Positions 37,942-64,000 of a stretch of 64,000 nt of DNA are shown in pieces (positions within the stretch are counted from its first letter, which is position 1; each line of letters begins with the position of its first letter). The DNA comes from Pirellulaceae bacterium (GTDB taxonomy: Bacteria; Planctomycetota; Planctomycetia; Pirellulales; Pirellulaceae): NCBI GenBank assembly GCA_045105035.1, contig JBGCCZ010000134.1, positions 153-64,152 on the forward strand, read 5' to 3'. Under the pieces are notes generated by a model. It was not told the origin of the DNA, ran no database searches, and worked only from the letters and a program-made list of their open reading frames with translations. A program made the position numbers and the translations under genes.

Positions 37942-37975
37942 GAGGCCGGTCAATACATCAGGGCCAAGCAATAGA

Positions 37976-38002: not shown

Positions 38003-38075
38003 GGGAAGTTTGAATGTTGCGCTGTGACGCGTGTCGTCACATCCGATTGGCAATCCGAGACGACGTAAAGTCGGT

Positions 38076-40616: not shown

Positions 40617-40879
40617 GAGTGGATTGGGTGGAATCTGGGCTGCCTAGTCAACGTTCTATTGCGCTGCGGATACAAGCCAGGAGTTGATTCGGCAGCGTCG
40701 AAGCGAGTCTGTAGCGTTCTGGCGAATCCACAGACCGCGACTGGCGTAATAGTTACCCCCAAGCTAATCTTGTTGCGGCTTCCGGGAAAGAACTGTTCTG
40801 TACAGGCACTTGATGCCTTGTCTGCGGTTCGTTCTTTTCTTCTTTCTCGCTCCGCCCCGACCCAACGAAAAAGACAACC

Positions 40880-41062
40880 ATGGCGCGTTTCAGTGCATTG
40901 CTGAAGGAGACTTGGTGGTTGTGGCTGCTTTTCGCGGCCGGCGGTACCGCACTTTCCTTCTTCAGTCCCGTATTCGTTGTTACTTTTCCAATCTGCATCT
41001 TTACGTTTTTCTGGTTCGCGTTCGTGCGCTACGATGCTGAAGGCAATTTTAAGGGCAGCTAA
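40880..41062 (+). CDS. Small (60 aa) two-TM membrane protein
   Basis: 'LLKETWWLWLLF...FFWFAFVRYDAEGNF'. ATG start, directly upstream of the SDR gene. Confidence 0.65.
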   Translation: MARFSALLKETWWLWLLFAAGGTALSFFSPVFVVTFPICIFTFFWFAFVRYDAEGNFKGS

Positions 41063-41082
41063 GGCGGGCAATCTCGAGTCCC

Positions 41083-42819: not shown

Positions 42820-42901
42820 GTTCCGGAACGTTCGCGGAGTACCTGTGAAGCCGACGCGAGATCAACTTTGAGATTTGCCCCGCGCTCGGACTTGTTTGCG
42901 T

Positions 42902-44197: not shown

Positions 44198-44642
44198 GGC
44201 TGTTTGCAGTGAAGGCTTGGGGTGCGGATGACGGACCAAATAGTGTGACAAATGATTGTTCGAGAGAGAAGAACCCTGCCAAGTGTCTGCGTTTTGTGGG
44301 ATATCCAGGGAGTTTCGGCATATTCGCAGCCAGCCCGTTACGAGGCTCCTGGGATTTCCGTTCGGCAGTCCGCCTGGCTCATTGGATTCTCGTTGGGAGC
44401 CTGGACCTTTGCTCCGGCGCAAGGGTAATCGGAAAAAGGGCAATCGGAAAAACTTGCCTGTTAGGCAAGGAACGGCGGGTTGAGCGGCAATATCGAGTGA
44501 TTTGGGAGCGTCTCGTTCATCCGTTTTTGATTTGAGTCGTGCTGGAAGGCTACAATGCGCAGACAGAATCGTGCGGCTTGGGCGTATCGCAGCTTCAAGG
44601 ATTCCCGTACTTTCGCCGCTGAGAATGCTCAGGAGTTGGACT

Positions 44643-46088: not shown

Positions 46089-46212
46089 GCCACTCGTTCG
46101 CTATTATTTCGGCTCGCTGCGCATTCGATTACGCGGATCGATTCCGTGGATCGTCGTTTGTGCTTAAGCTCTTGTGTGCAGTCTGTGTGTGTCGCCCGTT
46201 TAGGTCAGCTTC

Positions 46213-46533
46213 GTGAAACGCTACTCTGAGTACTTCTTGGCACTGTTGCTGGCAGGGATTTTGGCGGCCATCTACACCTGGATGGGAATCCGCGTCTTTA
46301 ATTTCGCTCTTGGTTTGGCGGCGGTTTGGTTTGTGATTTCCATTGTGCTGTTAAGTCGACCACCTGGGATCCCGGAGTTCGTGTCCGATCAATCTGATCC
46401 AGACGAGCAGCATATAACGCGGAAGGATGTGATCCCAACTCTAGGTATTCTGGATCGAGTGCGATTGTCCCTAAGTGTGGCTTGTGGCGCTTGTTTGCTG
46501 CTATGGCTGTCGCTCGTCTTGCTGGCAAAGTAG
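46213..46533 (+). CDS. Small membrane protein (3 TM)
   Basis: Hydrophobic 106-aa ORF filling the gap between genes on the same strand. Confidence 0.6.
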   Translation: MKRYSEYFLALLLAGILAAIYTWMGIRVFNFALGLAAVWFVISIVLLSRPPGIPEFVSDQSDPDEQHITRKDVIPTLGILDRVRLSLSVACGACLLLWLSLVLLAK

Positions 46534-46678
46534 GCGTCGTCCCCGCTACTCAAGTTGTTGCTGTGGCCAGCCGCTCCACTCGGAGTAGAATGAGGGACTC
46601 TGTGGGTAGCTGCCAAGCCAGCCGCAGATTCCGAAAAGACTTAGACGTTGACTGCAATTTCTCTCTGAGGTGACTTGA

Positions 46679-47869
46679 ATGTCCTTTTCCCGATTTCAAC
46701 GGGTCCTTTGGGTGTTCGTCTTGTGCGTATTTTCGACACAGGTTCGAGCCGAAGATCCAAAGTTGAGTTCTCTTGGCTTCGCTAGTGAAAAACCTGAAAG
46801 TGGCCCAGCGATCGAGGTCGAGGGCGGGTTTTTGGTTCCTTACACGTTGGTTGTGCCTGGAACGGAGGTCGAGATCAAGATGGTGCCGATCCCTGGCGGG
46901 ACGTTCAATCTTGGCAGCTCAGAGGACTCTGAGGGACACGTCGAAGACGAAGCGCCGACGGTAGAGATTGAAGTTGGGCCGATGTGGGTTGCCAAATACG
47001 AGACGACTTGGGAACAGTATCAGCTTTACATGTCGATGTACCGGATTTTTAAAGACCTGCAAGGGCAGGGTTTGCGGATGGTGAACGCGGACAATGAAGT
47101 TGACGCGGTCACCGCACCAACGGAGCTCTACGATCCGTCGTTTACTTTCAAGTACGGGCAGGAGTCCAACCTTCCGGCCGTGACCATGACACAGTACGCA
47201 GCGAAGCAATACACGAAGTGGTTGAGCAAACTTGTGGCCCACCAATACCGTCTGCCAACGGAAGCGGAGTGGGAGTATGCTTGCCGCGCGGGTTCTGAGA
47301 CGGAGTACTCCTTCGGCGATGACCCGGCAGTGCTGGGAGACTACGCATGGTTTTTCGAGAACTCGGACGGTATTCCTCACGGAGTCGGCGAGAAGAAGCC
47401 GAATCCCTTTGGCCTACACGATATGCATGGCAATGCAATGGAATTGGTGATTGGGGCGTACACCGAAGATGGTTACATGGCCCTAGAAGAGAATGGTGCT
47501 AAGACCGTTGTGGACTCGATTCAGTGGTCCGAGACTTTTGACAATCGATGCGTCCGCGGCGGTAGCTTTGAAGACGACGCGGAATTGCTGCGGAGTGCAG
47601 CGCGTTTGGGCTCGCAGGGTGAAGATTGGAAGACGGAAGACCCCAACGTGCCGCTAAGCCCATGGTGGTACACCGATGATCCAACGCGCGGGATCGGCTT
47701 CCGAATCGTACGTTCGTACAAACCCCTCGATGATGAGTTGATTGTCAAATTTTGGGATATCGACAACGAAGACATCGAGCTGGATGTCAATATGCGTTTG
47801 GATGAAGGCCGTGGTGTACTGACGCCGGTTGATCCTGCGTTGGCTGAGGCGATTAAAGACGCTCAGTAG
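46679..47869 (+). CDS. Secreted FGE-sulfatase (SUMF1/EgtB/PvdO) domain protein
   Basis: IPGGTFNLGS, RLPTEAEWEYACRAG, NPFGLHDMHGN, RGGSF, IGFRIVR. Confidence 0.9.
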   Translation: MSFSRFQRVLWVFVLCVFSTQVRAEDPKLSSLGFASEKPESGPAIEVEGGFLVPYTLVVPGTEVEIKMVPIPGGTFNLGSSEDSEGHVEDEAPTVEIEVGPMWVAKYETTWEQYQLYMSMYRIFKDLQGQGLRMVNADNEVDAVTAPTELYDPSFTFKYGQESNLPAVTMTQYAAKQYTKWLSKLVAHQYRLPTEAEWEYACRAGSETEYSFGDDPAVLGDYAWFFENSDGIPHGVGEKKPNPFGLHDMHGNAMELVIGAYTEDGYMALEENGAKTVVDSIQWSETFDNRCVRGGSFEDDAELLRSAARLGSQGEDWKTEDPNVPLSPWWYTDDPTRGIGFRIVRSYKPLDDELIVKFWDIDNEDIELDVNMRLDEGRGVLTPVDPALAEAIKDAQ

Positions 47870-47981
47870 GATTCTTGTGTTGTGCCTGAGTTTAATGTGC
47901 TGGATCCGATGATGATGGGAGAGCACTTTGGACTGGTCGATTTTGCCAATGCCGCTCTAGATCGCTAGTAGGACTAAAGGA

Positions 47982-48992
47982 ATGGAGCACGACGAAGTAC
48001 CGTCGTCCAAAGTCTCGCCCTCTGACTTGGGGCTGGATCAGCTTGAGTGGGGGCGACTAGAGGACTGGGTTCAGCTGGTCCGCTTTCCAACCACGTTCAC
48101 GCTGCTCTCAGGAACCATGTCGGCTGCAATCGTTGCTGGACAGGGGTGGCTGCCGCTCTCCGCGTTTTTGCCAACCGTGTTGGCTTCTTTGGCAGTTTAC
48201 TGGGCAGGGATGATCCTAAATGACGTGGTCGACATCGAAGAAGATCGGCTTCATCGACCAAAGCGTCCTCTGGCTGCTGGGAAAATCTCCCCAGTAATCG
48301 CCGGGCACGTCGGGACGGCTCTGCTGATGCTCGCCCCAATCGTCATCTTGGGCGTGACTGCGATGCACTCTAGCCAGCCGCTTTGGCAAGGAGTGGCCTT
48401 TCTTGCGGCGGTGCTGTTGTCGTTGTGTGTGCGAGTCTACGACTCGTCGCTGAAGTCAACGCTGCTGGGGCCAATTCTGATGGCAGGCTGTCGCGGGCTT
48501 AACATTTTGATGGTCGGCTGCACGATGCTCGCAGTGAGCGATATCGAAGTTTTTCCGTTGGAGTTGGCTTACTTCGCCGGCGGCATAGCCTTGTACATCT
48601 GTGGGATCACAGTCTTTGCCAAGAGCGAAGAGCTGGATGCAAAAGAAAGTGGCAACTTAGTACTGGGCTTGCTTCTGCAGGCTGCCGGGCTGATCGTGAT
48701 TGCACTGCTTCCACGCTGGGCGACGGCCGCGGAAATGTGGTATCTGGATCCGCTGCGTTACTATCCGTTGCTTATTGGATTGATCGGAATGACCGTAGCG
48801 AATCGCGCGTTTCAGGCGATTCGGAGTCCGATTTCACGGAACGTCATTTTAGCGGTCAAGCACGCGTTGCTTACGCTGATTCTGATCGATGCCGCAGTTG
48901 CTCTAATGTGGTGCGGCCCGTGGTTTGGGGGAGTCGTTGTAGCTCTGCTCGTACCAGCGCTCTTTATGGCGATATCCGTGCGTTCGACCTAG
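47982..48992 (+). CDS. UbiA-family prenyltransferase (EboC-like)
   Basis: 'GMILNDVVDIEEDRLHRPKRPL', 'YD...K', 'MAGCRGLN'; multiple TM segments. Confidence 0.85.
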   Translation: MEHDEVPSSKVSPSDLGLDQLEWGRLEDWVQLVRFPTTFTLLSGTMSAAIVAGQGWLPLSAFLPTVLASLAVYWAGMILNDVVDIEEDRLHRPKRPLAAGKISPVIAGHVGTALLMLAPIVILGVTAMHSSQPLWQGVAFLAAVLLSLCVRVYDSSLKSTLLGPILMAGCRGLNILMVGCTMLAVSDIEVFPLELAYFAGGIALYICGITVFAKSEELDAKESGNLVLGLLLQAAGLIVIALLPRWATAAEMWYLDPLRYYPLLIGLIGMTVANRAFQAIRSPISRNVILAVKHALLTLILIDAAVALMWCGPWFGGVVVALLVPALFMAISVRST

Positions 48993-49015
48993 CGTGTACG
49001 CTGTGTTCACCCGGT

Positions 49016-49375
49016 TTACTGCGCTGGCTTTGGGGTAATCGGCTGGACTTCTTGAATCGCCATTTCTGCATCGATTCGAGTGCGGTCTAAGTGGATGGAC
49101 CATTCGCCTCGGTCGCCACCAATGGCCCAAGTCCCATACAAAGTGCCTTCGCCATCGTATTGGCCGACGTAAACAACCGAGTGCCGGTGCTCGTACTGCT
49201 TAAGAATCTCGACCGTGCCATCCGGTCCGAGCGTTCCGTTGAGATCAAAAGGCGCGATGACATCGACGCCTGTTCCTGAAAGTTTCTGACCCTGAAAGCT
49301 CAGCTTCAACTCGCTCACCATCTGGCGACCAAAACCGGTTTGTTGCCACCAACCGCTGCAAGCACATTGACTCAT
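49016..49375 (-). CDS. Hypothetical small beta protein
   Basis: 119-aa ORF 'GWWQQ...G.GVD...F...G...KQY...HSVVYVG...GTW'. Confidence 0.7.
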   Translation of the reverse strand: MSQCACSGWWQQTGFGRQMVSELKLSFQGQKLSGTGVDVIAPFDLNGTLGPDGTVEILKQYEHRHSVVYVGQYDGEGTLYGTWAIGGDRGEWSIHLDRTRIDAEMAIQEVQPITPKPAQ

Positions 49376-49492
49376 TGAAATTCACTCCACTTCGAATCGG
49401 CTGGCGATAGAGATCTTTTTCGCCTCGCTGAATTCTAGCGCAGGGCGGGGCTGGGGCAACTCGAGCTTGAATCTACGGCGAAACCCACGCGG

Positions 49493-49852
49493 CTATTTCT
49501 TCCCTAGGAGTTGACCGATATTCTTCACGGCTAGATTTAGTGAAACGGCCGACATCTGGTAGTTCATATGGCCAGAAATTTCAGGCTGAATTTCCGTAAA
49601 CAGCTCGGTAGCGCGTCGGAGCTTCGAGAACTTCTTATTCGCTAGCTTGAGGTACGCCTTTGCGTCGTTGGCATCAAGCGATGGTCCCAACGCGAGCATA
49701 AAGTCGTAAAGGTCGCGGTGTACTGAAGCGAGTTCTTCGTCTTCCTGGGCTTCGTCGCTGTGCTTCAGGAAGGTTCGAACCATCCAAACGTGGGCAACCT
49801 GCTGATCGACAAGTTGCATCAGTTCGGACTCTTCGGGACTGTTATCGCTCAT
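49493..49852 (-). CDS. Conserved planctomycete hypothetical helical protein
   Basis: 'HVWMVRTFLKHSDEA...LYD...P.ISGHMNYQMS'. Confidence 0.75.
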   Translation of the reverse strand: MSDNSPEESELMQLVDQQVAHVWMVRTFLKHSDEAQEDEELASVHRDLYDFMLALGPSLDANDAKAYLKLANKKFSKLRRATELFTEIQPEISGHMNYQMSAVSLNLAVKNIGQLLGKK

Positions 49853-50088
49853 GCTGCAGACTAAAAATTAGGGATAGGGAAGGCGGGATGCGAAACCCGT
49901 CGCTATGAAGTTCCGCGTAAGGACAGTAGGCGGAGCTTCGGGTTGAACGCTATAGTATGGACCGGATGGCAACCGGCGGCCAAGTGCCAAGTCGGGGTTG
50001 GTCCGGCAAATGATCGGTCCGGTCATCCCGTTCTCAGGACAGAGACACTCATTCCCGTTTTCGATACTCATTCCCGTTTACGAGTCGT

Positions 50089-51960
50089 ATGCCAGATCTT
50101 ATTGCTCAAGGCCCTCGGCCCCAGGATCGTTGGCGTCGTACTTTGGAGGACTCGGGAGTTGAGGTCGTCCTGGGGCGTACTACGGAACCTTGGTCGGTAA
50201 AGTGGGATGATCGGATCTCGCGTCGGCATGCGACTTTGGTCTGGACAGGTTCCAAGCTGCAAATCGCGAAGCTCGAGCAAGCTCGTAACGCGATATTTTT
50301 CCGCGGCCAACAGTGTGCCAAGTTTGATGCGTCGATCGGCGATCACTTTGTCATTGGCCAAACCACGTTTACGGTGCTTGATGAGCAGGTGACGGCCGCG
50401 CCGGGCGTGGAACCCGAGCCCGTCTTCGCCGAACAGACCTTCTCGGCTCACTTGCTAAGAGAGAACAAGTATCGAGACGCGGACCAGCGCATCGAAGCGC
50501 TGGGTCGGTTGCCAGAGATAATCTCGGGGGCCAATAGTGATGAGGAGCTCTGTACGCGGATTACAGATTTAGTGTTGCGTGGGGTTCAAGAGGCGGCTTT
50601 CGTGGCCGTGCTGCGATTTAGGGACGAGCCGGAGCAGGGGACGGCCTCCTCATCTGACGGTGACACTGCAGCCGAACAGAGTTTCTCCGAGACGAAGTTA
50701 GATGTCCAATTCAATCCGGCCTTTGAAGTTCTACATTGGAATAGTCGTCAACTGGGCGGCAAGCCTCTCACGCCAAGTGTTGGCTTGGTGCGCACGGCCA
50801 CACAGACTAAGGAAAGTGTGCTGAATGTTTGGAATCGTAATTCGGTAAACCCGACGTTTACCCAGAGTGAGAATGTGGACTGGGCCTTCTGTACACCAGT
50901 CGTTTCCGACGCGTGTCCAGGCTGGGCTATCTACGTGGCGGGCGCGTTCACGACGGCTTCCATGATCGAATTGCAAACCTCTGGCATGAAAGAAGCCGAG
51001 ATGTTGCAGGACGATTTGAAATTTACGGAGCTTACGGCAACCACGCTCGGGGCCCTGCGGCAAGTTAGAGCTCTGCAGCGAAGGCAAGACAGTCTGCGTA
51101 ACTTTTTCGCGCCTGTCGTGATGGATGCTCTCGCGGGCCGCGATCCAGAGCAGGTTCTCACACCACGCGAGACAAACGTGTCGGTGCTGTTCTGCGACTT
51201 GCGAGGATTTTCCAAGCGTAGTGAAGATGCCGCTGATCGTTTGCTCGAGTTGCTTAAGCGGGTGAGCGATGCGCTGGGAGTGATGACACATCACATTCTG
51301 GCGAACAGCGGCGTTGTTGGGGACTTTCATGGTGATGCGGCGATGGGTTTTTGGGGATGGCCTATCGCGACAGGAAATCCGATACAGCAGGTTTGCCGAG
51401 CGGCGTTGGCAATACGAAATGAATTCGCTGCGGCGGCCAAACAACCAGATCACCCTTTGGCTGATTTCCGCGCTGGATTGGGAATCGCGTCTGGTTCGGC
51501 CGTGGCAGGGCGGATCGGAACAACAGATCAGGTCAAAGTGACCGTGTTCGGACCAGTCGTGAATTTGGCTTCACGGTTGGAAGGAATGACGAAGCAACTG
51601 CAGACGTCGATTTTGGTTGATGAGCCAACGGCGGATTGGATTCGGGCGAATGTTCCAACTTCCGAACTGCGCATTCGGCGAGTCGCCCGCGTATTGCCGT
51701 ACGGGATGAAAAAGCCGCTCGTAGTGAGTGAATTACGGCCACCTGCGAGCGAAGATACGATCATGTCGGACGCGGACGTTGAGGCCTATGAGGAAGCACT
51801 GGGCGAATTTCTCGAGGGCAATTGGAGCAATGCATTCCGCCTGTTACATGAAGTCCCGGCGGAAGATCAAGTCAAGGATTTCTTAACCGTGTTCATTGCG
51901 CAACACCGCCGTGAACCGCCTCCGGACTGGGCTGGGGTCATTGAGTTGCCAGCCAAGTAA
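50089..51960 (+). CDS. FHA-domain class III nucleotidyl cyclase
   Basis: FHA domain (LGR, ISRRHA), central GAF-like region, cyclase motifs LFCDLRGFS, GDFHGDA, VNLASRLE. Confidence 0.9.
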   Translation: MPDLIAQGPRPQDRWRRTLEDSGVEVVLGRTTEPWSVKWDDRISRRHATLVWTGSKLQIAKLEQARNAIFFRGQQCAKFDASIGDHFVIGQTTFTVLDEQVTAAPGVEPEPVFAEQTFSAHLLRENKYRDADQRIEALGRLPEIISGANSDEELCTRITDLVLRGVQEAAFVAVLRFRDEPEQGTASSSDGDTAAEQSFSETKLDVQFNPAFEVLHWNSRQLGGKPLTPSVGLVRTATQTKESVLNVWNRNSVNPTFTQSENVDWAFCTPVVSDACPGWAIYVAGAFTTASMIELQTSGMKEAEMLQDDLKFTELTATTLGALRQVRALQRRQDSLRNFFAPVVMDALAGRDPEQVLTPRETNVSVLFCDLRGFSKRSEDAADRLLELLKRVSDALGVMTHHILANSGVVGDFHGDAAMGFWGWPIATGNPIQQVCRAALAIRNEFAAAAKQPDHPLADFRAGLGIASGSAVAGRIGTTDQVKVTVFGPVVNLASRLEGMTKQLQTSILVDEPTADWIRANVPTSELRIRRVARVLPYGMKKPLVVSELRPPASEDTIMSDADVEAYEEALGEFLEGNWSNAFRLLHEVPAEDQVKDFLTVFIAQHRREPPPDWAGVIELPAK

Positions 51961-51978
51961 TAGAGAGTAATAAGAACG

Positions 51979-52422
51979 ATGACTGATGACCCATTCATGC
52001 GAGCCGCCATTGATGAGGCGAGGATAGGATTGGACGCAGGCGGGATCCCAATCGGTTCGGTGCTCGTCTTGGATGGTGAGATTATCGGGAGAGGCCACAA
52101 CCGTCGTGTTCAGGACGGTAGTCCCATTCTGCATGCAGAAATGGCTTGCCTTGAAAATGCGGGGCGGAGGTCGGCGGCCGAGTATCGTCGCTCAACGATC
52201 TACTCAACGTTGTCGCCCTGTGACATGTGCAGCGGAGCCATCCTGCTCTATGAAATTCCGCAGGTTATCTTCGGTGAGAATACGACTTTCGGAGGGCCCG
52301 AAGACTATGTTCGGTCACGCGGTGTTCAAGTCACGAATATGAGCTCCGCGGAGTGCATTGCCTTGATGCGGCAGTTCATACAATCGAAGCCGCAGTTGTG
52401 GAATGAGGATATTGGCGTTTGA
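51979..52422 (+). CDS. Cytosine deaminase, fungal Fcy1-type (CDA fold)
   Basis: GGIPIGSVL, HAE, LSPCDMC, C-terminal WNEDIG. Confidence 0.88.
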   Translation: MTDDPFMRAAIDEARIGLDAGGIPIGSVLVLDGEIIGRGHNRRVQDGSPILHAEMACLENAGRRSAAEYRRSTIYSTLSPCDMCSGAILLYEIPQVIFGENTTFGGPEDYVRSRGVQVTNMSSAECIALMRQFIQSKPQLWNEDIGV

Positions 52423-52519
52423 AGTTCCACCCATGCGCCATGCGTGCGCAGGTTTCAGTGGCTAACGCGTTGAACATGGCTGTATGAACTTAACCTCCGC
52501 GCTGCGAGCGGCGGTCGCG

Positions 52520-53956
52520 TTAAGCCAACAAGTCATGTTGCACTTCTCCATGGACGTCCGTTAGCCGATAGTCACGGCCTTGGAAGCGATAGGTGAGTTT
52601 CGTGTGATCGAGCCCGAGTAGGTGCAAGACGGTGGCTTGCAGGTCGTGGACATGTACTGGCTTTTCGGTCACACCGAATCCGAGCTCATCGGTGCTGCCG
52701 TAGTCCAGGCCGCCTTTGACCCCGCCACCGGCCATCCACATCGTAAAGCAGTCCGGATAGTGGTCGCGACCGAGGATCTTGCTTTTCGCAGTTCGTCCTT
52801 CGCGGAACGGCGTGCGACCGAACTCGCCGCCCCAAACAATCAGCGTGTCTTCGAGCAGTCCGCGTTGGCGAAGGTCCTTGATCAACGCAGCTACGGGCTG
52901 GTCCATCGTAGCGCACTTCTTGGTGAGTCCGTCACCAATGTCTTCACTTGGATTGGTTCCGTGGAAGTCCCAGCCCCAATCGAAAAGTTGCACGAAGCGA
53001 ACACCGGACTCCACTAATCTCCGCGCCAGCAAACAGTTGTTGGCCAAGGAGCTGCGGCCTGGCTCTGCTCCGTAGTCCTCGAGTGTTTGCTGCGATTCGC
53101 GAGAGATGTCCATGACTTCTGGAACGCTGGCCTGCATGCGGAAGGCAAGTTCGTACTGAGCGATTCGCGTTTGTGTTTCGGGGTGACCCATCTGCTCAGC
53201 CTGCAGTTGGTTGAGTTGGCTGAGAGCGTCGAGTGTCGAACGCCGCAGTTTGCGACTCATACCCTTCGGGTTCGATGCAAACAGAACTGGGTCGCCTTTA
53301 GAGCGGCACTGTACACCCTGGTAAACGCTCGGAAGGAAACCACTTCCGAACGAACTTTTACCTCCATTGGGTTGTACTCCGCTGGAAATCAGCACGACAA
53401 ACGCAGGTAGATCTTCGTTCTCAGAACCTAGTCCGTAGGTTACCCAGGAACCCATGGAGGGACGACCGGTGCGGGGAGAGCCTGTGTAGATCAGTAATTC
53501 GGCTGGGGCGTGGTTGAATTGATCGGTGTGCATGGAGTGGACCATGCACAACTCGTTGGCGACGGTCTTCAGATTCGGCAACGCGGCGGACATCCAGGTG
53601 CCCTGTTCTCCGACTTGCTCAAACTGCTGTGGAGTGCCCAGTAGGGTTGGCGTTCCGGAGGTGAACGCGAAGTCCTTGCCTTCAAGAAACGAGCCTGGGC
53701 AGTCCTCACCGTGCCTCTCTTTGAGAGTCGGTTTGTAGTCGAAGAGGTCGAGGTTTGGCGGGGAACCAGTCATGTGTAGGTAGATGACTCGTTTGGCCTT
53801 CGGAGCGAAATGAGTCTGCGCAGCACCGACAGCCTGCGTGGCTGCTTGCGAACTGTTCAATAAGTTGCCAGATGCTAGGGCGCCAAGCCCGAGTGCGCCG
53901 CCTTGGAGGAAGTATCGGCGAGTTCGGAGCTGTAGGTTTTCGATGATGGGATGCAT
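52520..53956 (-). CDS. DUF1501 domain protein (Tat substrate)
   Basis: TRRYFL Tat motif, 'AKRVIYLHM.G.P', 'ARRLVESGVRFVQ', 'GEFGRTP...GRDH'. Confidence 0.93.
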   Translation of the reverse strand: MHPIIENLQLRTRRYFLQGGALGLGALASGNLLNSSQAATQAVGAAQTHFAPKAKRVIYLHMTGSPPNLDLFDYKPTLKERHGEDCPGSFLEGKDFAFTSGTPTLLGTPQQFEQVGEQGTWMSAALPNLKTVANELCMVHSMHTDQFNHAPAELLIYTGSPRTGRPSMGSWVTYGLGSENEDLPAFVVLISSGVQPNGGKSSFGSGFLPSVYQGVQCRSKGDPVLFASNPKGMSRKLRRSTLDALSQLNQLQAEQMGHPETQTRIAQYELAFRMQASVPEVMDISRESQQTLEDYGAEPGRSSLANNCLLARRLVESGVRFVQLFDWGWDFHGTNPSEDIGDGLTKKCATMDQPVAALIKDLRQRGLLEDTLIVWGGEFGRTPFREGRTAKSKILGRDHYPDCFTMWMAGGGVKGGLDYGSTDELGFGVTEKPVHVHDLQATVLHLLGLDHTKLTYRFQGRDYRLTDVHGEVQHDLLA

Positions 53957-54037
53957 GGAGTCGTCTTCAAGCTTGGGCGGCAGATTCGTTGGCGGGTTGG
54001 ACTAGTAAGTTGTCGTAACGGGAACAGTGCTCTTTTG

Positions 54038-56569
54038 CTACCGTTTCATTAGGACTTCATCGAGGTTTAGGATCACGTTGCCGACGGACGCTAACGCGGC
54101 CAGGTGATGATCGCTTACGTGTTGAGGTTTGCCCGGAGGATCGCCAGCCAGCGAAGTGGCTGTGTTGTCGTCGCCGTCAAGCTGCTCATAGGCTTCGTCA
54201 TAGAGCTGCAAGAGTACGATTGCTTCTTTAGCGGAAGGTGCCCGATTGGTTGCTAATCGGAACATCGCCGAGATCTGGCGTGATGTGTCTTTCGGGTCGT
54301 TCACGGATGCTGCCTTGGCTGCTAGGGCTTGGGCGGCTTCGAAGAAACTTGGGTCGTTCAAGGTGACCAGGGCTTGTAGCGGTGTATTGGTTTGTTCTCT
54401 TCGCAGCATGCAGACTTCGCGGCTAGGGGCATCGAACATCATTAGCGATGGATACGGGCTCGACCGTCGCCATTTGGTGTAGAGAGCACGGCGGTAACGG
54501 TCTTCGCCTTGAGATGTTTCCCAATCCGTCTTACTGCCAAACGCGGCTTTGAGTCCGAGGTCGGGTTGAGGAGGTTGTACAGGCGGGCCGAACATTTTTC
54601 CGCTCAGTAGCCCGGCCGCAGCAAGTGCTTGGTCTCGCACCATTTCCGCGCTCAGCCGAACACGTGGACCTCGGGCTAACCAACGATTGGCTGAATCACG
54701 TTGCCAGTCATCTTGGGATACTTCAGACGTTTGCCGATACGTCTGACTCGTCACCATCAGCCGCAGTAAGCGTTTGGTATTCCAGCCCGAATCCATGAAC
54801 TCCACCGCCAACCAATCGAGGAGATCCGGATGAGTTGGGCGTTCGCCTTGCGCACCAAACTCCTCACTGGTTGTTACAAGCCCGCTTCCAAACAGCGTTT
54901 CCCACAAGCGGTTTACCCAAACTCTGGCTGTCAACGGATTGCGACGATCTACAAGCCAGCGAGCTAACTCCAATCGACTAACTGGCTTCGCAGAATCGCT
55001 GGTCTCTATCGGATGGAAAACTTCAGGCACCCCGGCGACCACCTGGATGCCCTGGGCTCGGTAGTTGCCGCGGATCTGTACGAAAGTCTTTCGGTGTTTC
55101 GGTTTCGCTAACTCGCTCAAAACAGGAACTGTTGTGGCGGGCTTCAGATCTTTCAGCGTTTTTCGGTACGCTGCAAGTCGGTCAACTTCGGACTTCGTTC
55201 GTGCTGCGTAGTTGGTAAAAAACCGTTTTCGGTCTGGCAATGAGAGCGAATCGGTCCACGGATCAACCAGGCTGAATCTCGCTTTGGTCGGTTGCGAAAG
55301 TTGTCGCGATAGTACTGCGATCTGGGACTGGATGATTTCTTTGCGATCGATCTGTTCGTCGGTAAAAAGTTGCAGGATGGGAGCTTCGTTCCTACGGTCA
55401 GCATCGGCCGTTTGATTGAAAATTGCGAACAGCTTGAAGTACTCTTCGTGCGTGTAGGGGTCGTACTTGTGGGTATGGCACTGAGCGCAGGCCATGGTAA
55501 CGCCCATCCAGACCGCCATCGTCGTGTTGACTCGGTCGACCACGGCCACGTTGCGAAACTCTTCGTCGTTCGTCCCGCCTTCGTTATTCGTCAATGTGTT
55601 GCGGTGGAATGCAGTGGCCACCAGTTGGTCTTCAGTTGGGGATGGCAGTAAGTCCCCCGCAAGTTGTTCAATCGTGAATTGATCGAGCGGCATGCCCGAA
55701 TTTAGTGCGCGTACCACCCAATCGCGATAGGCCCAAATGGTTCGCGGTGGATCATCGGCGTAGCCAGCCGAGTCGGCGTAGCGAGCAAGATCCAGCCACT
55801 GCCGCGCCCAATGCTCGCCGTACTTGGGCGATGCGAGCAGCTCGTCTACCAACTGTTCGAAGGCTAAGTTATTCTCGCTTTTGAGGGTTGAACTAACGAG
55901 GCCAGTTTCACGCGGTAGGCCAATCAGATCCAGACTAACGCGTCGTTCTAGTTCAGCAGTTGTGGCTGGCGGCGAAGGGCTCCAGCCTTGTTCTCGCATT
56001 TTTGCGTAAGTAAATCGGTCAATCGCATTGCTTCTCCAAGATTCGGGGATCTTGTTATCGATTGGTGGTAGGTCGGGTTTTGTGGGCGGAACAAACGACC
56101 AGTGTTCTGTCCACTCTGCACCCGAGTTGATCCACTGACGGACAAGCTCCGCTTCTTCATCGGAGATTGCCTTGCCGAATTCAGGAGGCGGCATCTTTTC
56201 CCCGTCATCATGGCTGTCGATGCGGCGCATGAGTTCACTGCTCTGAGCGTCTCCAGGCATGACTGGTGGCAGTCCGGAATCTGCTTCGCTGAGAAATGCC
56301 GTTCTTTCGTCCAGCCGGAAACCTCCTGAACGCTGCTCTTCGTCTGGGCCGTGACAGGCAAAGCAGCGATTCGAAAGCAAACTGCGGACGCTCCGTGTTT
56401 TCTCCAAGCCGAACTTGCTCTCTGAGCTAGTCGTTTTGGAGGTTCTCGCTGGAGCCTCTTCTACACTAAGCCCTCGCTTTGCATTCGACGTGCACCAAAG
56501 CAAAATTGCTAACAAGGCCACGAACAGTCTCAGTACTGGTTGATTTGCCGAAGACATTGCAAATTGCAC
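54038..56569 (-). CDS. Planctomycete cytochrome c / DUF1549 / DUF1553 (PSCyt-PSD1) protein
   Basis: CFACH and CAQCH heme motifs, 'HWSF', 'WLDLARYADS', 'NPLTARV.VNR.W', 'TPLQAL'. Confidence 0.93.
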   Translation of the reverse strand: MQFAMSSANQPVLRLFVALLAILLWCTSNAKRGLSVEEAPARTSKTTSSESKFGLEKTRSVRSLLSNRCFACHGPDEEQRSGGFRLDERTAFLSEADSGLPPVMPGDAQSSELMRRIDSHDDGEKMPPPEFGKAISDEEAELVRQWINSGAEWTEHWSFVPPTKPDLPPIDNKIPESWRSNAIDRFTYAKMREQGWSPSPPATTAELERRVSLDLIGLPRETGLVSSTLKSENNLAFEQLVDELLASPKYGEHWARQWLDLARYADSAGYADDPPRTIWAYRDWVVRALNSGMPLDQFTIEQLAGDLLPSPTEDQLVATAFHRNTLTNNEGGTNDEEFRNVAVVDRVNTTMAVWMGVTMACAQCHTHKYDPYTHEEYFKLFAIFNQTADADRRNEAPILQLFTDEQIDRKEIIQSQIAVLSRQLSQPTKARFSLVDPWTDSLSLPDRKRFFTNYAARTKSEVDRLAAYRKTLKDLKPATTVPVLSELAKPKHRKTFVQIRGNYRAQGIQVVAGVPEVFHPIETSDSAKPVSRLELARWLVDRRNPLTARVWVNRLWETLFGSGLVTTSEEFGAQGERPTHPDLLDWLAVEFMDSGWNTKRLLRLMVTSQTYRQTSEVSQDDWQRDSANRWLARGPRVRLSAEMVRDQALAAAGLLSGKMFGPPVQPPQPDLGLKAAFGSKTDWETSQGEDRYRRALYTKWRRSSPYPSLMMFDAPSREVCMLRREQTNTPLQALVTLNDPSFFEAAQALAAKAASVNDPKDTSRQISAMFRLATNRAPSAKEAIVLLQLYDEAYEQLDGDDNTATSLAGDPPGKPQHVSDHHLAALASVGNVILNLDEVLMKR

Positions 56570-56715
56570 TTCGTGTGAGGAAAGGAAGTAGGGCGGTTGG
56601 AGGGCAAAGAGGTCATTTCATCTTACTCTGAGTTTCTCTTCAGCGTTGTGGGGAGGCAACCGTACGTTGATTTCGTCCTCCAGGGGGATTTTGGCCGTTA
56701 GTCAGGCAGCGCACG

Positions 56716-56744
56716 AAAAAAGCCCGGAATCGATCCGGGCTTTT
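56716..56744 (-). terminator. Rho-independent terminator
   Basis: AAAAGCCCGGA-atcga-TCCGGGCTTTT hairpin with a T6 tract on the minus strand, just downstream of 56769-57251. Confidence 0.85.
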
Positions 56745-56768
56745 GTGTGCATCAGGAAGGGACTCTGC

Positions 56769-57251
56769 CTATTCGACCATAAGTGTTTCGAGTGACTCTT
56801 CTTCTTCGGTAGTCTCGAAATGCTGCGACAGTTCTTCGTCGACTTGCTTGATGCTGTCGATAAGCTCTTGTTCTTCACCGGTCAGCTTGATGTAGCCCAG
56901 GTCGCGGACAACTTCGAGGACTTCGCTGCAGGTCGGGAACATACGGCCACTGGAGCGTTTGTATTCGTCCATGGCTCGCATGAAGTCGATTTCTTCATCG
57001 TTGTAATCACGTTCGCAGGTCGTCGGATCAATCTGGCGACGGCGTTGCTTTTTCTGAGGCTTAGGTGATGCGTCGAGCTCTTCGGTCGTGCCTGACTCAG
57101 CGGCTTGTTCCAGAGCTTCGACTTCTTCAGTGCTGGGCTTGCGACGACGATCGATCGTAACTTCGCGTTCTCCGGCAGCTATCGAATCGACGGTCTGTGT
57201 ATCTTCTGCTGCAGGTGTGGAAATGATCGACTTTTTCGCTGACTTTGCCAT
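56769..57251 (-). CDS. Conserved planctomycete hypothetical protein
   Basis: '[14 protein letters not shown]...[28 protein letters not shown]'. Has its own terminator. Confidence 0.8.
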
Positions 57252-57476
57252 TGGGATCCCCTGGAGAATTCAAAGAGCTCAACTTGCCGAAGCGTGTTGA
57301 GGCAACTGTTCGATGTACCTGGGAAAACTTACCGCATCACCGAGACTATGGCGGTATCTTGGTCCAGTCTGGTCAGTCAAAACTGCAGACCTGCGTTGAG
57401 GTTTTTGGATATGCGGGTTGTGCGGGCGATTGGCCAGGCAGAGGTCACAGTTTGGGCCCGGCAACGGCGGATTTTG

Positions 57477-58058
57477 CTAAGCGCCCTTTGTCCAGAGCTT
57501 GCAGGTGTGCTCGCCTTCGTCGTCGGTAACGACTAATTCGACTGAGCCCATCTCGACCTGTGGCGTATCGCCGAGCAGTGGTTCCAGCGATGCATCTTGG
57601 ACGCTCCAGGCCTGCCCTGTTGCGGCGAGGTCGATTGTTTGTTGAGTTGAGTTAGAAGTCAGGATGATCTTCGCACCCTCGATGCGATCTGCATCGAAGT
57701 CGTCAAGGTAGACCAGGAGGCGATCGGCTTGGGAGTCGTACTTCCATTCTGCGTGCACTGCAGACGGGAATAGGTGGATCAGTTTTCCACCGTTGGGTCC
57801 AGCCGCGTGGTGGTGCGACTTCTTTTGAGGGGTCGAATTCGTTTTCGAAAGTGAATTCGCTGGCTCACCGCTTGGTTGCTCTTGCGTCGACGTTGTGTCT
57901 GCTGCAGGGGCTTGAATCTGTGTGGAGCAGCCCAGCGAACAAGCGAAGCCGATGCCTAAAGCCGCAATGTTGGCAGTCAAGTTTGACGGTAGGACGCGGC
58001 GTTTGGCAGGCCGAGCTGATTGACGAAGAACTAGCGATTTGAATAGTTGCATGTCCAC
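57477..58058 (-). CDS. Putative lipoprotein with His-rich metal-binding motif
   Basis: Lipobox-like 'SLGC', 'HHHAAGPNGGKLI', 'HAEW'. Confidence 0.65.
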   Translation of the reverse strand: MDMQLFKSLVLRQSARPAKRRVLPSNLTANIAALGIGFACSLGCSTQIQAPAADTTSTQEQPSGEPANSLSKTNSTPQKKSHHHAAGPNGGKLIHLFPSAVHAEWKYDSQADRLLVYLDDFDADRIEGAKIILTSNSTQQTIDLAATGQAWSVQDASLEPLLGDTPQVEMGSVELVVTDDEGEHTCKLWTKGA

Positions 58059-58352
58059 ACTTTTGGCCTGCAGGATTGGAAAGAGTAAGTCTATGGAGCT
58101 TTGCGTTCTGGACCGGTTGGTTCAGTAACGCCTGCTGAGCATGTTAGGAGAACCGGCTAGCTGTGAACGAAAGAGGCTGGAGAAGGAGTCATTGTAAGGC
58201 GTTAGCACAAAAGCCACGCGTTTCAGGGCGAACGTTGGCTCGAGCGAATACAATGGCATTCTCCGAATCAGAAGGACAAGATAGGACTGCCTGCCGTCGA
58301 AACGGCGGCTCCCGGACTTCGCCAAAGCAACGCCCGCAATTGGTTTTTCATA

Positions 58353-59348
58353 ATGTGCTACTTCCCACTCCGCTCAGTGTCGCTCGATAAGAGCCTCAGG
58401 CTGACGCTAGCAGCGTGCCTGTCGATTTCACTTGGTGCATTCTTGACATCCGAATCGGCGATGGCGCAGCTGACGGTGCTTTCGGCTGGGAATCGGACCA
58501 TTAAGTGGAAGGACACTCAGTTAGAAACACTTCGCACCCAGTTGAAAGACCAGCCGGCGGTTGGTGCTTTGCGTCTGGAGCTTGAATCGCAGGTTAAGTG
58601 GTTGGAGGCTTGGGAGCCAAAGAGTCTCGGTTTGGCATCTTTGTGGGAGTCGCCGACTGCCGAGGGGAGGTACGTGGAGCCCCCACTTGATCCTAATAAG
58701 AGAGCGACTGCGTTGCGGGAGCGATTGCTGGGTAAGGCTGCAAAGCCGACAAGTCGTGATACGGCGCGACTGGAGAAGCTTCTTAGTGTCTATCCAAATG
58801 ACATCGGTATCAGGCAACTTCATTTGCATTGGCTGGATCAAACGCAGTATCGAAAGCAGTATGCGGATGAGATTGCAGAAGCATCGCAGCGATTGATTGG
58901 ACTATTGGAGCAAGTTGAATCTCAGACGAGAGCGGTCAAAGTGGCGACCGTGTTTTGCCTTTATCGACGCGGGCGAGCGTTGGCTTACCGAGAATTGCCG
59001 GATGTGGTTGCGAAGGATCCTATCAGCGAACCCGAGAAGCACTCGGCAGCCTTGCTTGGCACATACACGCAGCTGATTTCTATGGTGGGCGAGGATCGGC
59101 CGGAGTTTATCTTGTTGCAGATCCGGATGTTGCGCCGTGACCATTGGTATGGCCGTGCATTGCACCTATTGGAGAGTAATGGTTCTCTCATTGAGCAGAA
59201 GTGGTTTCTGAAAAAACGCCGCGATCTGCTAAGAGACCTCGGGTGGCAAGAGGCAGCTAAAGAGGCGTCGGCAGTGTACGCCAAAGAGTTTGCTGGCGAG
59301 GTTGAGAAGGAGGCCGAGCAGGCTGCCAAGGATAAGAAGGCTGCTTGA
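58353..59348 (+). CDS. Secreted hypothetical helical protein
   Basis: Signal peptide ending 'AMA-Q' and a long helical ORF. Confidence 0.65.
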   Translation: MCYFPLRSVSLDKSLRLTLAACLSISLGAFLTSESAMAQLTVLSAGNRTIKWKDTQLETLRTQLKDQPAVGALRLELESQVKWLEAWEPKSLGLASLWESPTAEGRYVEPPLDPNKRATALRERLLGKAAKPTSRDTARLEKLLSVYPNDIGIRQLHLHWLDQTQYRKQYADEIAEASQRLIGLLEQVESQTRAVKVATVFCLYRRGRALAYRELPDVVAKDPISEPEKHSAALLGTYTQLISMVGEDRPEFILLQIRMLRRDHWYGRALHLLESNGSLIEQKWFLKKRRDLLRDLGWQEAAKEASAVYAKEFAGEVEKEAEQAAKDKKAA

Positions 59349-59600
59349 TCGCCCGTAGCCTTGCGGTGCAGGCGTCCCAAGCGTTGTTATCCCAATTGTG
59401 CGTCACGGCCTTCAGTTCGGACGCTTGCCCAAACGATATCGTCTAATAATTCAAAGCGGATCGGTGCGCGGATTGCGGTCCACCGCCAAGAAGCAAGTTA
59501 ATAAGATGTGGCGTTGTCAGATTCGGCGGACACTGTCATATTTGAATCTCTGGAGTATCCCGCTGCGATGATTTGCCGCGGGATTATTTTCGGCAGTTGC

Positions 59601-59618
59601 TTGTGAAAACTTTCACAA
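59601..59618. promoter_or_regulatory. Rex operator (ROP) upstream of the nqr operon
   Basis: TTGTGAA-AACT-TTCACAA is an exact match to the Rex consensus TTGTGAA-N4-TTCACAA, 61 nt upstream of the nqrA ATG. Confidence 0.8.
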
Positions 59619-59679
59619 TCGCGAGTTTCTTATTGGGTGTCTCTGGCAGACGGGCACTCTTCAGGGGAAAGAGGCAGAC

Positions 59680-61044
59680 ATGGTGGAGCGGTTTGAAATC
59701 GGTCGAGGGCTGGAAGTCCCGATTGATGGTGAGCCTGTTCAGAGTGGAGCAGCGCCAGAGATCAAGGAAGTAGGGCAGGTCGGGATCGTAGCTGATGACT
59801 ACATCGGCATGCGACCGACTTTGCATGTTTCCGAAGGCGACTCGGTTCAGCTCGGGCAACCGTTGTTCACAGATAAGAAAACCGAAGGGGTTGTCTATAC
59901 GGCGCCAGCGTCCGGCAAGGTGCTTTCGGTCAATCGCGGTGAGAAGCGACGATTCTTGTCGATCATTATCGACAAGCAGGGCGATCAGGAGAGTCGCGAC
60001 TTTGGGCGCGTGGATCCAGGCCAGTTGTCATCGCTCGACCGTGCAGATGTGATTAACAAATTGGTGGAGTCGGGTCTTTGGTCGAGCTTTCGCTCCCGTC
60101 CGTTCTCCAAGGTGCCTTCGCCCGGGTCGGATGTACCACAGGCGATATTCGTAAATGCGATGGACACGAATCCGCTGGCTGGAAACCCGGTGGATTTCAT
60201 TGGCGACAACTCGGAGAGTTTTCAGCATGGCTTGGATGTACTGCTGCGTTTGACGGAAGGGGACGTGTTCGTCTGCCGACCGCCAAATTCAAGCACTCCT
60301 GGCGAAATGATCAACCGTGTGCGCATGGCGGAATTCGATGGGCCGCATCCAGCAGGTCTGGTTGGTACCCACATGCACTTTTTGAAGCCAGCCACGGCCG
60401 GCCGAATCAACTGGTACTTGAACTACCAGGATCTTGTTGCCATAGGCAAGTTGTTTGTGACTGGGCAACTCGATCCAACTCGCCGTGTTTCGTTGGCTGG
60501 TCCTGCCGTCAAGAACCCTAGAATGATTCAGACGCAGGTCGGGGCGTCTCTTGAAGAGTTGGTCGACGGGGAGCTTGCCGACGGGGAACATCGCGTGATA
60601 TCTGGCTCCGTCTTGTGCGGTCGCAAGTCTGAGGAGCTAGTTGGCTTCCTGGGGCGTTACCATTTGCAAGTCTCCTGTGTTGCGGAAGGACATGAGCGAG
60701 AGTTGCTGGGTTGGCAGATGCCTGGCTTTGACAAGTTTTCGATAACGAGGGCATTCGCTTCGGCTTGGCAGGGGACGAAGAAGTTTGCTTTGACGACTAG
60801 CACCGGTGGTAGTGAACGGGCCATGGTGCCTATCGGTACTTACGAGCGGGTTATGCCGCTCGACTTGATCCCCACGCCGCTACTGCGAGCATTGATTTCA
60901 CGGGATACCGCTGCCGCACAAGAGCTCGGGTGTCTTGAGCTGGATGAGGAGGATCTCGGCCTGTGTACTTTTGTTTGCCCAGGCAAGTATGAGTATGGCG
61001 GTATTCTACGAGACAACTTGCTGACGATTGAGAAAGAGGGGTAG
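59680..61044 (+). CDS. nqrA: Na+-translocating NADH:quinone reductase subunit A
   Basis: [49 protein letters not shown]. Confidence 0.96.
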
Positions 61045-61052
61045 GCGATACA

Positions 61053-62402
61053 ATGAAGTTTCTTCGCAATACGCTCGATAAGCTCCATCCGCTCTTCGAT
61101 AAAGGCGGCAAACTAGAGAAGCTATATCCGCTTTACGAGGCGGGCGACACGTTTCTCTATACGCCCGGAGAGGTGACAAAGGGCACAACGCACGTGCGTG
61201 ACGCTCTAGACCTGAAGCGGATGATGATCATGGTCGTCGTCGCTTTGGTCCCCTGCATTTTTATGGCGCTTTGGAATACTGGCTATCAGGCGAACCTGGC
61301 GATTGCTGCCATGGCTGAGGCTGGGTTGCAGCCCCACTTTGATTGGCATCATACGATTCATGCCGCTCTCGGGCTCGGGCATGATCCCGGAAGCTTTTTG
61401 GATAACTTGGTGTACGGGGCAACTTTCTTCTTGCCGGTCTATATCGTCTGCATGACTGCGGGGGGTATCTGCGAAGTGATCTTCAGTATCATTCGTGGGC
61501 ACGAAGTGAATGAAGGGTTCTTGGTCTCTGGCTTGCTCTTTCCGTTGACATTACCGCCAGGGATTCCACTCTGGCAAGTCGCCGTAGGGATCATGTTTGG
61601 TGTCGTCGTTGGCAAGGAAATCTTTGGAGGCACAGGCAGGAACTTTTTGAATCCTGCTCTGACTGCTCGGGCTTTCTTGTACTTCGCATACGCGGGGCAG
61701 ATCAGTGGTGATAAAGTTTGGACGGCTGCCCAGGTCGCTACAACGACGGTAGCGGATGGGGTTGAGAAGGTTGCAGTGGATGGTTATTCCGGAGCGACGG
61801 CGTTGGGGCAACTTGCTGCAACGACTCCCAATGTAATGGCCAATCAAGGCTACGGAAGTCCGATGGAGTCGTTGTCTACGATCGCAACTTCCGCGTCTGC
61901 GGCATCGGATCAAATCTCCGCCACTTCGATTTCATTTATGGGTTCGTTGCTTGGGACAATCCCTGGATCGATGGGAGAGACAAGTGTGCTCGCTTGCATC
62001 ATCGGAGCTGCGGTCCTGATCGCGACCGGTATCGGGTCCTGGCGGATCATGAGTGGTGTTTGCCTCGGTGCTTTGTTGTTTTCCTCATTGCTCTACATCG
62101 TTGGTAGTGAGACCAATCCGATGTTCGGTATTCCTCCTTGGTGGCATTTCGTGATCGGTGGATTCGCCTTTGGTACGGTGTTCATGGCGACGGATCCCGT
62201 CAGTGCGTCAATGACGGAGACGGGGAAATGGTTTTATGGAGCCTTGATCGGAGCGATGACCATCTTGATACGAGCGATCAATCCGGCCTTCCCGGAGGGG
62301 ATTATGTTGGCGATTCTTTTCGGCAATGTATTCGCGCCGCTCATCGACTATTTCGTAGTTCAAGCCAACGTGAAACGGAGGGCCGCTCGCTATGCCGCCT
62401 AA
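61053..62402 (+). CDS. nqrB: Na+-NQR subunit B
   Basis: [30 protein letters not shown] (FMN-Thr), [18 protein letters not shown]. Confidence 0.96.
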
Positions 62403-63189
62403 AGACTCCATCGCGAACACTTTCATGGTTTCCTTGGTGCTCTGCGTCGTGTGCTCGCTTTTGGTGAGTAGTGCCGCGGTAGTGCTGAAGCCCATGCAGG
62501 AACGCAATAAGGTCTTAGACCGCCAGAAGAATATTATTGCCGCTGCCGGGCTGTCCGAAGAACCGGCTGCCCTTTCGGGTTCCGAAATCGAAGAGATTTT
62601 CTCCTCTCGGGTCGAGCCGAAAATAGTCAACTTAGAGACAGGCGAAACGGAGGAAGATGATCCGACGTTTGATCCTCGCAAAGCGGCTAAGGATCCTGAG
62701 CGAAGCGTAGAAGTCGAAGGTTCACTTGATATCGGTCAAGCTCGTCGTGAGAAGCGAACCCGGGTCTTCTTGGTTAAAAATGATGGCGGCGAGCTAGAGC
62801 AGGTCGTCCTTCCTGTCTACGGAATGGGGCTCTGGTCGACACTCTATGGATACGTGGCAGTCGATAAGGATCTCGAGACGATTAAGGGGCTGACCTACTA
62901 CGAACATGCGGAAACGCCCGGCTTGGGCGGTGAAGTTGAGAATCCTGCGTGGAAAGAGAAGTGGATTGGCAAAAAGATCTTTAACGATGGGGTCGATGTT
63001 GCTTCGGCCTCTCTTGAGGACATTAGAGTTGGAGTTGCCAAGGGCGCTCCCACTGCTGAGAACCTTCCGTATCAGGTCGATGGTTTGTCCGGAGCCACGA
63101 TCACGAGTCGTGGTGTCGATACCATGTTGAAGTATTGGTTCAGCGATGAAGGTTTTGGCCCGTATCTCAAGAATCTGGCCGATCAGTAA
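62392..63189 (+). CDS. nqrC: Na+-NQR subunit C
   Basis: N-terminal [30 protein letters not shown] (FMN-Thr). Confidence 0.96.
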
Positions 63190-63207
63190 GGCTTAAGGGA
63201 GCTAAAG

Positions 63208-63873
63208 ATGGCAGCGCCGACTGCAAAAGAAGTATTGCTGAAGCCAATCTTCGATAACAATCCGATTGGCCTTCAGATTTTGGGAATCTGCTCGGCGCTA
63301 GCCGTGACGACCCAGATGTCGACCTCGCTGGTGATGAGCGTTGCGGTGATCGCCGTATGCGGCTGTGCGAGTGCATCTGTTTCGTTGATCCGACACCGGA
63401 TTCCAAGCAGTATTCGAATCATCGTTCAGATGGTCGTGATCGCCTCGCTGGTGATTTTGGTGGATCAGATCTTGAAGGCGTTTCTGTTTGACATTAGCAA
63501 GCGATTGAGCGTCTTTGTTGGATTGATCATCACCAACTGTATCATCATGGGAAGGTTAGAGGCGTTTGCCTTAGCAAACAAACCAGGACCGTCTATTTTG
63601 GATGCCATTGGAAATGGTATTGGATACGCCTGGATTCTATTGGCTGTAGCCTTTGTAAGAGAGATCTTTGGTTCTGGAGCAATTTCATTGCCTGGAATGG
63701 GCCAAGTAAAATTTATCCCAGCTTCATGGTTCTATCATGCAGGAGCAGGAGGAATGGAAGGATTTTATGAGAACAACAACTTAATGATTTTGCCTCCTAT
63801 GGCCCTGATCGTTGTTGGAGTGATCATTTGGATCCAAAGAAGTAAGAACACAGCATTAATTGAAGAGAATTAA
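63208..63873 (+). CDS. nqrD: Na+-NQR subunit D (apparently chimeric)
   Basis: [18 protein letters not shown] and [16 protein letters not shown]. The 3' half has a different base composition. Confidence 0.93.
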
Positions 63874-63878
63874 TTGTC

Positions 63879-64000
63879 ATGGAGCACATTAGCATATTTG
63901 TAAAAGGAATTTTTGTTGAGAACATGATATTTGCCTACTTCTTAGGCATGTGTTCTTACCTAGCTGTTTCAAAAACAGTTAAAACTGCATTCGGATTAGG
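63879..64000 (+). CDS. nqrE: Na+-NQR subunit E, 5' part (runs off the window)
   Basis: Manual translation from ATG 63879 gives [41 protein letters not shown]. Confidence 0.92.

Follow-up and report, generated by a model that had tools for sequence, protein, structure and literature searches.

The window analysed here is a stretch of 64,000 nucleotides from a Pirellulaceae MAG (G000; 5.87 Mb in 216 contigs, with a completeness of 88% and a contamination of 2%). It spans G000:C134:153-64152, and contig C134 is 64364 nt long, such that the contig stops 212 nt past the last base of the window. Towards its right-hand end the window carries, all on the plus strand, a run of nqr genes. The first three are native to Pirellulaceae: nqrA (59680..61044; Pfam NQRA_N, NQRA_2nd and NQRA_SLBB; GC 0.555, GC3 0.61), nqrB (61053..62402; Pfam NQR2_RnfD_RnfE, E 6e-96; 80% amino acid identity to the Pirellulaceae relative L083, versus 38-46% to Flavobacteriales), and nqrC (62392..63189; Pfam FMN_bind; 74% amino acid identity to L083, versus ~30-44% to Flavobacteriales). 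The nqrC start codon (ATG, 62392) precedes the end of the nqrB stop codon (62402), giving an 11-nt overlap within the native part of the operon; this overlap is ordinary translational coupling.

The next gene, nqrD, occupies an unbroken ORF of 221 aa (63208-63873), and its product, the deposited hybrid NqrD, matches the Pfam Rnf-Nqr family (PF02508) with 188.6 bits against a cut-off of 23.8, over profile positions 3-174 of 174. Nonetheless, the ORF consists of two dissimilar parts: a 5' part of native Pirellulaceae type (63208..63551), whose end at 63551 is the last base backed by independent contigs, and a 3' part of Flavobacteriales type (63552..63873), fused to the former in frame. Beyond it lies the 5' fragment of an nqrE gene, likewise of Flavobacteriales type (63879..64000; GC 0.363), which reaches the contig end at the window equivalent of 64212. 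Pfam matches above curated cut-offs were obtained for every nqr subunit found, the nqrE fragment as well as nqrA, nqrB and nqrC included. The AT-rich stretch is thus a terminal stub of C134, of ~810 nt, and the switch between the two types of sequence lies at C134:63703/63704.

A first-pass annotation of this DNA had noted that, partway through nqrD, the sequence turns AT-rich and Bacteroidota-like without a break in the frame, and had offered two readings: most likely a chimera created during assembly, with a conserved stretch as the joining point, or, if real, a recombinant respiratory complex between phyla. The compositional side of that description is accurate. Its hand counts of G+C per 60 nt (38, 31, 26, 19 and 20) are exact in all five cases; in 200-nt windows, GC goes from 0.53-0.55 before position 63500 to 0.355-0.44 after it. 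The reported scarcity of CG dinucleotides is borne out by a CpG observed/expected ratio that falls from 1.07-1.26 upstream to 0.28-0.30 in the tail (0.30 in the nqrD 3' part). Similarly, the reported shift to codons ending in A or T is visible in GC3, which is 0.58-0.67 from nqrA through the nqrD 5' part and only 0.36-0.40 in the tail (0.36 in the nqrD 3' part), and in the choice of individual codons: GGA accounts for 20 of 126 glycine codons upstream versus 16 of 20 in the tail, while arginine is mostly encoded by CGN upstream and exclusively by AGA or AGG in the tail. The composition of the tail is wholly un-ameliorated. When the whole MAG is cut into 700-nt windows (mean GC 0.541, SD 0.021), the C134 tail, with a GC of 0.39, is the minimum of the MAG; it lies ~7 SD under the mean, and is the sole place below 0.42 in 5.87 Mb.

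The change in composition is accompanied by a change in taxonomic affinity. The two halves of the deposited NqrD (residues 1-111 and residues 112-221) were scanned separately against species-representative genomes. Pirellulaceae MAGs are on top for the first half (97, 96, 91, 90 and 89% identity). For the second half, nearly all of the 80 matching loci carry Flavobacteriales or other Bacteroidota titles, the best being MAGs of marine Flavobacteriales, Crocinitomicaceae and Cryomorphaceae (77-83%), and no planctomycetes are found among these 80 loci. A single alignment shows the same switch. Over residues 1-100, identity is 97/96/90% with L083/L084/L085 and 46-53% with Flavobacteriales; over residues 117-221, it is 35-43% with Pirellulaceae, 77-81% with MAGs of marine Flavobacteriales and Crocinitomicaceae, and 58-65% with the more distant Salibacter and Vicingaceae. 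The 16 residues in between are 94-100% identical to both groups. For the NqrE fragment (111 aa), identity amounts to 86-91% with Flavobacteriales MAGs versus 54-56% with Pirellulaceae. Separate inspection of the best hits on the two sides of the switch—Pirellulaceae at 97% for the nqrD 5' half, Flavobacteriales at 80-91% for the 3' half and nqrE—thus bears out the motifs that had earlier been called Bacteroidota-like. The mosaic is absent from the close relatives L083-L087, all of which have ordinary planctomycete-type NqrD C-halves.

The switch had also been placed at the most conserved motif of nqrD, with no frameshift, and both points hold: the junction falls in this motif, and the 221-aa ORF is unbroken and matches its Pfam profile end to end. 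The exact location requires some adjustment. A start at 63510, as first proposed, is ~40 nt early, the last base that fits the native sequence being 63551. Since the close relatives are only ~70-75% identical in DNA, the crossover cannot be placed by nucleotide identity; it was placed from independent contigs instead. These identify an exact 30-nt stretch that is common to the native genome and the foreign organism, and that forms the site of the false join (63522..63551, plus strand). The stretch codes for residues of the conserved motif. As a 30-mer, it occurs exactly in 19 species genomes from Bacteroidota, Tissierellia and Spirochaetota; its carriers include Flavobacteriales (Crocinitomicaceae, Salibacteraceae, Flagellimonas), Bacteroidales, Marinilabiliaceae, Tissierellia and Spirochaetia/Sphaerochaeta.

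The independent contigs are Logan contigs, a re-assembly at k=31, from three sequencing runs (X1-X3) of one 'plant metagenome' study. Runs X1-X3 hold 51-78% of the sampled words of the locus and are probably the source samples of the MAG, so that the Logan contigs constitute an independent assembly rather than independent data. They tell which path is supported, and not whether rare molecules are absent. Contigs were placed on C134:61652-64364 (L001), in which L001:2052 corresponds to window position 63551. Each of the three runs contains a long native contig (16731, 11597 and 31594 nt in X1, X2 and X3, at depths of 29.1, 17.3 and 16.2, respectively) that matches L001 positions 1-2052 with 5-8 scattered differences, none of them within the nqrD 5' part. 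Beyond window position 63551, all three leave the C134 sequence and continue with one common, unlike, GC-rich sequence, reaching ~8.7, 2.5 and 15.3 kb past that position. None of these three contigs crosses the junction, and all three enter the native continuation.

Cover of the C134 tail is of a different order. It consists, in X1 and X2, only of short contigs (220, 204 and 151 nt) at depths of 2-3.6, while the X3 Logan contigs do not cover the tail at all. The coverage step that had been proposed as a check is therefore present: for X1/X2/X3, depth is 29/17/16 in the native part versus 3.6/2/0 in the tail (0-2 in X2 for the nqrD 3' part), an 8-fold reduction where the tail is present at all. 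The values are k-mer depths averaged over each contig rather than per-base read depths. The parts of the tail that are left uncovered (L001 beyond ~2470) were given no evidential weight. In X1, the first tail contig starts at L001:2023 and so has exactly 30 nt in common with the native contig (window 63522-63551); a k=31 graph should give just such an overlap, of k-1, where it branches. The tail was also found in a seawater run from another study (X4), as two 151-nt pieces with 0 and 1 differences; the depth of the planctomycete part in this run is zero, indicating that the owner of the tail exists apart from the planctomycete. X4 contains one other contig of relevance, of 357 nt and depth 182, which matches only L001:2015-2053 (window 63514-63552; 39 nt with 1 mismatch) and whose flanks are unlike on both sides of the 39-nt stretch. 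This contig represents a third, abundant owner of the conserved nqrD/rnfE words.

The native continuation can be located within the same MAG. The 30 nt with which the three native contigs depart from C134 are found, exactly and at the homologous nqrD position, at G000:C72:61287-61316(-), and there are no other exact matches to this loose end within G000. Read in frame, the loose end extends NqrD as ...NCIIMGRAEGFAMKN, the motif of the Pirellulaceae relatives. The C72 nqrD ORF, like the hybrid ORF on C134, has a full-length PF02508 match above the curated cut-off, and the NqrD it encodes is a mirror-image mosaic of the one on C134: its N-half is 58-59%, and its C-half 86-93%, identical to L083/L084/L085/L087. 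On the native side of the motif, C72 matches L083 at 92% for the NqrD C-half, 90% for NqrE and 83% for NqrF; on the other side, at 67% for NqrB', 42% for NqrC' and 62% for the NqrD' N-half. The nqrD 3' part and nqrE on C72 have a GC of 0.48-0.49, versus 0.54 genome-wide.

The non-native side of C72 comes from yet another source. Its NqrC' is 98% and 96% identical to those of two uncultured Arenicella sp. genomes (Gammaproteobacteria), and C72:63783-61290 aligns with the best Arenicella genome at 86.6% nucleotide identity, in an alignment that stops at the nqrD motif; past the motif, C72 is ~65% identical to Arenicella and 74-76% identical to Pirellulaceae. The MAG hence has another chimeric end, on C72: an Arenicella-like stub of 2.47 kb, comprising nqrB', nqrC' and the 5' part of nqrD' (G000:C72:61317-63783; GC 0.43-0.51, low for the MAG), is attached to a remainder that is native Pirellulaceae. 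The excerpt L002 spans C72:59798-62967. C72 and C134 share an identical 21-nt run at window 63523-63543, and at the C72 crossover the sequence reads ATCGTGATGGG on C72 versus ATCATCATGGG on the native contigs. The crossover is located just to the right of this ATCGTGATGGG/ATCATCATGGG difference, in sequence shared with the Arenicella strain of the sample, a placement that is approximate. By tblastn, in which the nqrB-E genes of C72 show 41-54% identity, C72 could be taken for a second nqr operon; that candidate was ruled out by the exact match of the loose end and by the mosaic nature of the C72 NqrD. When the MAG was searched by tblastn for a further nqrD 3' half or nqrE that might be the missing native continuation, only the 'paralogue' on C72 came up.

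Joining the two native parts in the way that the three Logan contigs do yields an NqrD of 209 aa, which is 97/94/91% identical to L083 by section and 94.3% overall, while its identity to Flavobacteriales is ~51% throughout. Gene counts point the same way. Exactly two Rnf-Nqr genes, nqrD and nqrE, adjacent to one another, are present in each of two relatives, G001 (a single chromosome record of 7.1 Mb) and G002; the MAG contains four, two per chimeric contig end. There is therefore one nqr operon in the MAG, its two portions lying on contigs that each carry a foreign stub, and the apparent duplication of the operon is an artefact of the two chimeric ends. In the true genome, C134[1..63703] should lead directly into C72[1..61316], the latter read as its reverse complement, to give a scaffold of ~125 kb. 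Taken as a gene of a single-organism nqrABCDEF operon, the deposited nqrD fails: its ORF joins two organisms, with one part of the native gene on C134 and the other on C72. The deposited 221-aa hybrid probably has no counterpart in any cell. With C134 and C72 in one piece, the native operon is unremarkable, and it is collinear with the operons of Pirellulaceae relatives. The gene order nqrA-B-C-D-E agrees with that of the Na+-NQR operon nqrABCDEF, and no biological difference from it is left when the artefact is removed.

These results bring together a composition break, a taxonomic switch, a depth step, a junction that is bypassed by independent contigs, and a native continuation that has been located on C72. 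Because of them, we consider the C134 junction to be, almost certainly, an interspecies chimeric contig produced by metagenome misassembly rather than a biological event, with sequence downstream of the join deriving from another organism, as the first-pass annotation had favoured. Over the codons of the conserved NqrD motif, the planctomycete shares at least 30 nt of identical sequence with a rare Flavobacteriales bacterium that co-occurs with it, and words shared in this manner link the assembly-graph paths of different organisms. At the shared stretch, the assembler would have left the abundant planctomycete path for the low-coverage Flavobacteriales path; coverage would then have given out ~810 nt further on, ending C134. 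The native nqrD 3' half, nqrE and nqrF onward came to be joined on C72, at the same motif, to 2.47 kb from a third organism, Arenicella sp. As the genes are homologous and aligned, such a join happens to be in frame. The stubs may end contigs either because the foreign organisms are too rare to be assembled further, or because the graph is tangled there. The exact behaviour of the assembler, including why the stubs end contigs, is something that we infer rather than show.

The main biological alternative is the inter-phylum recombination that had been raised as a possibility from the outset: in a Pirellulaceae strain, Flavobacteriales DNA would have replaced the nqrD 3' half and nqrE (perhaps nqrF also) at the motif, resulting in a hybrid Na+-NQR. 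A functional recombinant would be expected to encode a full-length Rnf-Nqr protein across an in-frame junction, as is seen here, and the stretch that is identical in both donors could have served as a start for homologous recombination. Yet an in-frame join is equally expected when aligned homologues are joined at an identical stretch, and the remaining evidence runs against a real event. The dominant contigs of three runs, at depths of 16-29, pass the motif into the native continuation and not into the tail; the tail is 8-fold shallower or absent, and turns up in seawater (X4) where the planctomycete is missing; its composition is un-ameliorated, and the contig is over after 810 nt. Moreover, C72, from the same MAG, carries the native nqrD 3' half along with nqrE and nqrF, and relatives do not have the mosaic. 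We therefore regard recombination as highly improbable. A weaker version restricts the event to a minor Pirellulaceae subpopulation (at most ~12% of cells, in one sample) that would have acquired the Flavobacteriales nqrD 3' half and nqrE by homologous recombination at the motif, and so would carry a hybrid Na+-NQR membrane core of very recent, inter-phylum origin. It owes what little probability it has to the short Flavobacteriales contig of X1, which begins within the shared stretch and so does not show its own left flank. Given that the tail is found in X4 without the planctomycete and is absent from X3, that its composition is foreign, that it sits at a contig end, and that the native continuation is present, the subpopulation is very unlikely.

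Two further readings are each assigned only a minute probability. If the genome had two true nqr operons, one of the C134 type and one of the C72 type, it would be the independent contigs that are chimeric, having crossed between paralogues. Two sets of nqrB-E are indeed recovered from the MAG by tblastn, and the Logan k of 31 is short enough that paralogues could, in principle, be crossed at a shared 30-mer. However, the C134 tail would still need a separate explanation, and the C72 NqrD is itself a mosaic, with an N-half 59% and a C-half 91% identical to one and the same relative. The nqrB', nqrC' and nqrD' 5' part of C72 belong to Arenicella (98% at the amino acid level, 86.6% at the nucleotide level) and end at the motif. 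In addition, just one nqrD-nqrE pair is present in the relatives, which include the 7.1-Mb chromosome record; the similarity of the rebuilt NqrD to L083 is even, at 94%, and the same path is taken in all three runs. Alternatively, the 3' end of the operon could be AT-rich throughout the lineage, through either a membrane-protein bias or an old, fixed transfer common to the relatives. Genes for membrane subunits can run lower in GC, and the nqrD 3' part and nqrE on C72, at 0.48-0.49 versus 0.54, do so to a degree; but the tail, with a GC of 0.36-0.42 and a CpG observed/expected ratio of 0.3, lies far beyond the range of the genome. This reading is refuted by the relatives, which are 89-97% identical to the deposited protein in the NqrD 5' half, and which have 3' halves of planctomycete type that are just ~40% identical to it.

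A misassembled junction on C134 agrees, in most respects, with what has been described for interspecies chimeric contigs. Among near-complete MAGs assembled from CAMI data with MEGAHIT, 69% contain at least one such contig (bioRxiv 10.64898/2026.10.15.759294), and both the joining of contigs at conserved regions and the carry-over of the result into bins are recognised (bioRxiv 10.64898/2026.10.15.759294). As in those cases, composition, taxonomy and coverage change abruptly at a stretch that is identical in two genomes, and the foreign piece enters the bin as binners treat contigs as indivisible. Unlike in the usual chimeric contigs, the C134 breakpoint lies inside a coding gene and in frame, such that gene callers report an intact hybrid NqrD. 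A second distinction concerns position: the published detection benchmark left out the outermost 1 kb of contigs, and the correction tool makes no cuts there (bioRxiv 10.64898/2026.10.15.759294); the C134 stub, at less than 1 kb from the contig end, falls in that zone outside the benchmark. On C134 and C72 together, a single motif has given rise to two chimeras that look reciprocal, and three phyla are thereby mixed within a single bin. The junction also resembles genuine mosaic genes, in that the crossover lies in a conserved stretch, the frame is kept and similarity switches sharply. In a genuine mosaic, though, reads would span the junction at host depth and host sequence would resume; on C134, the junction is avoided by the dominant contigs, the tail has foreign depth and the contig stops.

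In biological terms, there is no hybrid respiratory complex at this locus, and the recombinant complex first entertained is not upheld: the dominant contigs of three runs bypass the junction, and the tail is 8-fold shallower or at zero depth. The value of the case lies in quality control. The deposited hybrid NqrD, the truncated Flavobacteriales NqrE and the Arenicella block of nqrB, nqrC and the nqrD 5' part would together pass for a duplicated operon plus a cross-phylum transfer, and the in-frame junction conceals the error from gene callers. The assembly can be corrected by (i) trimming C134 after position 63703, (ii) trimming C72 after position ~61316, and (iii) joining C134 to the reverse complement of C72.

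Elsewhere in the MAG, further 1-kb windows with a GC below 0.475 lie near contig ends, at C122:18301-21200 (on a contig of 21364 nt) and at C84:1-1100; these might be further foreign stubs. Low-GC spots also occur in the interior of contigs, at C96:45701-47200 and C162:5601-7100.
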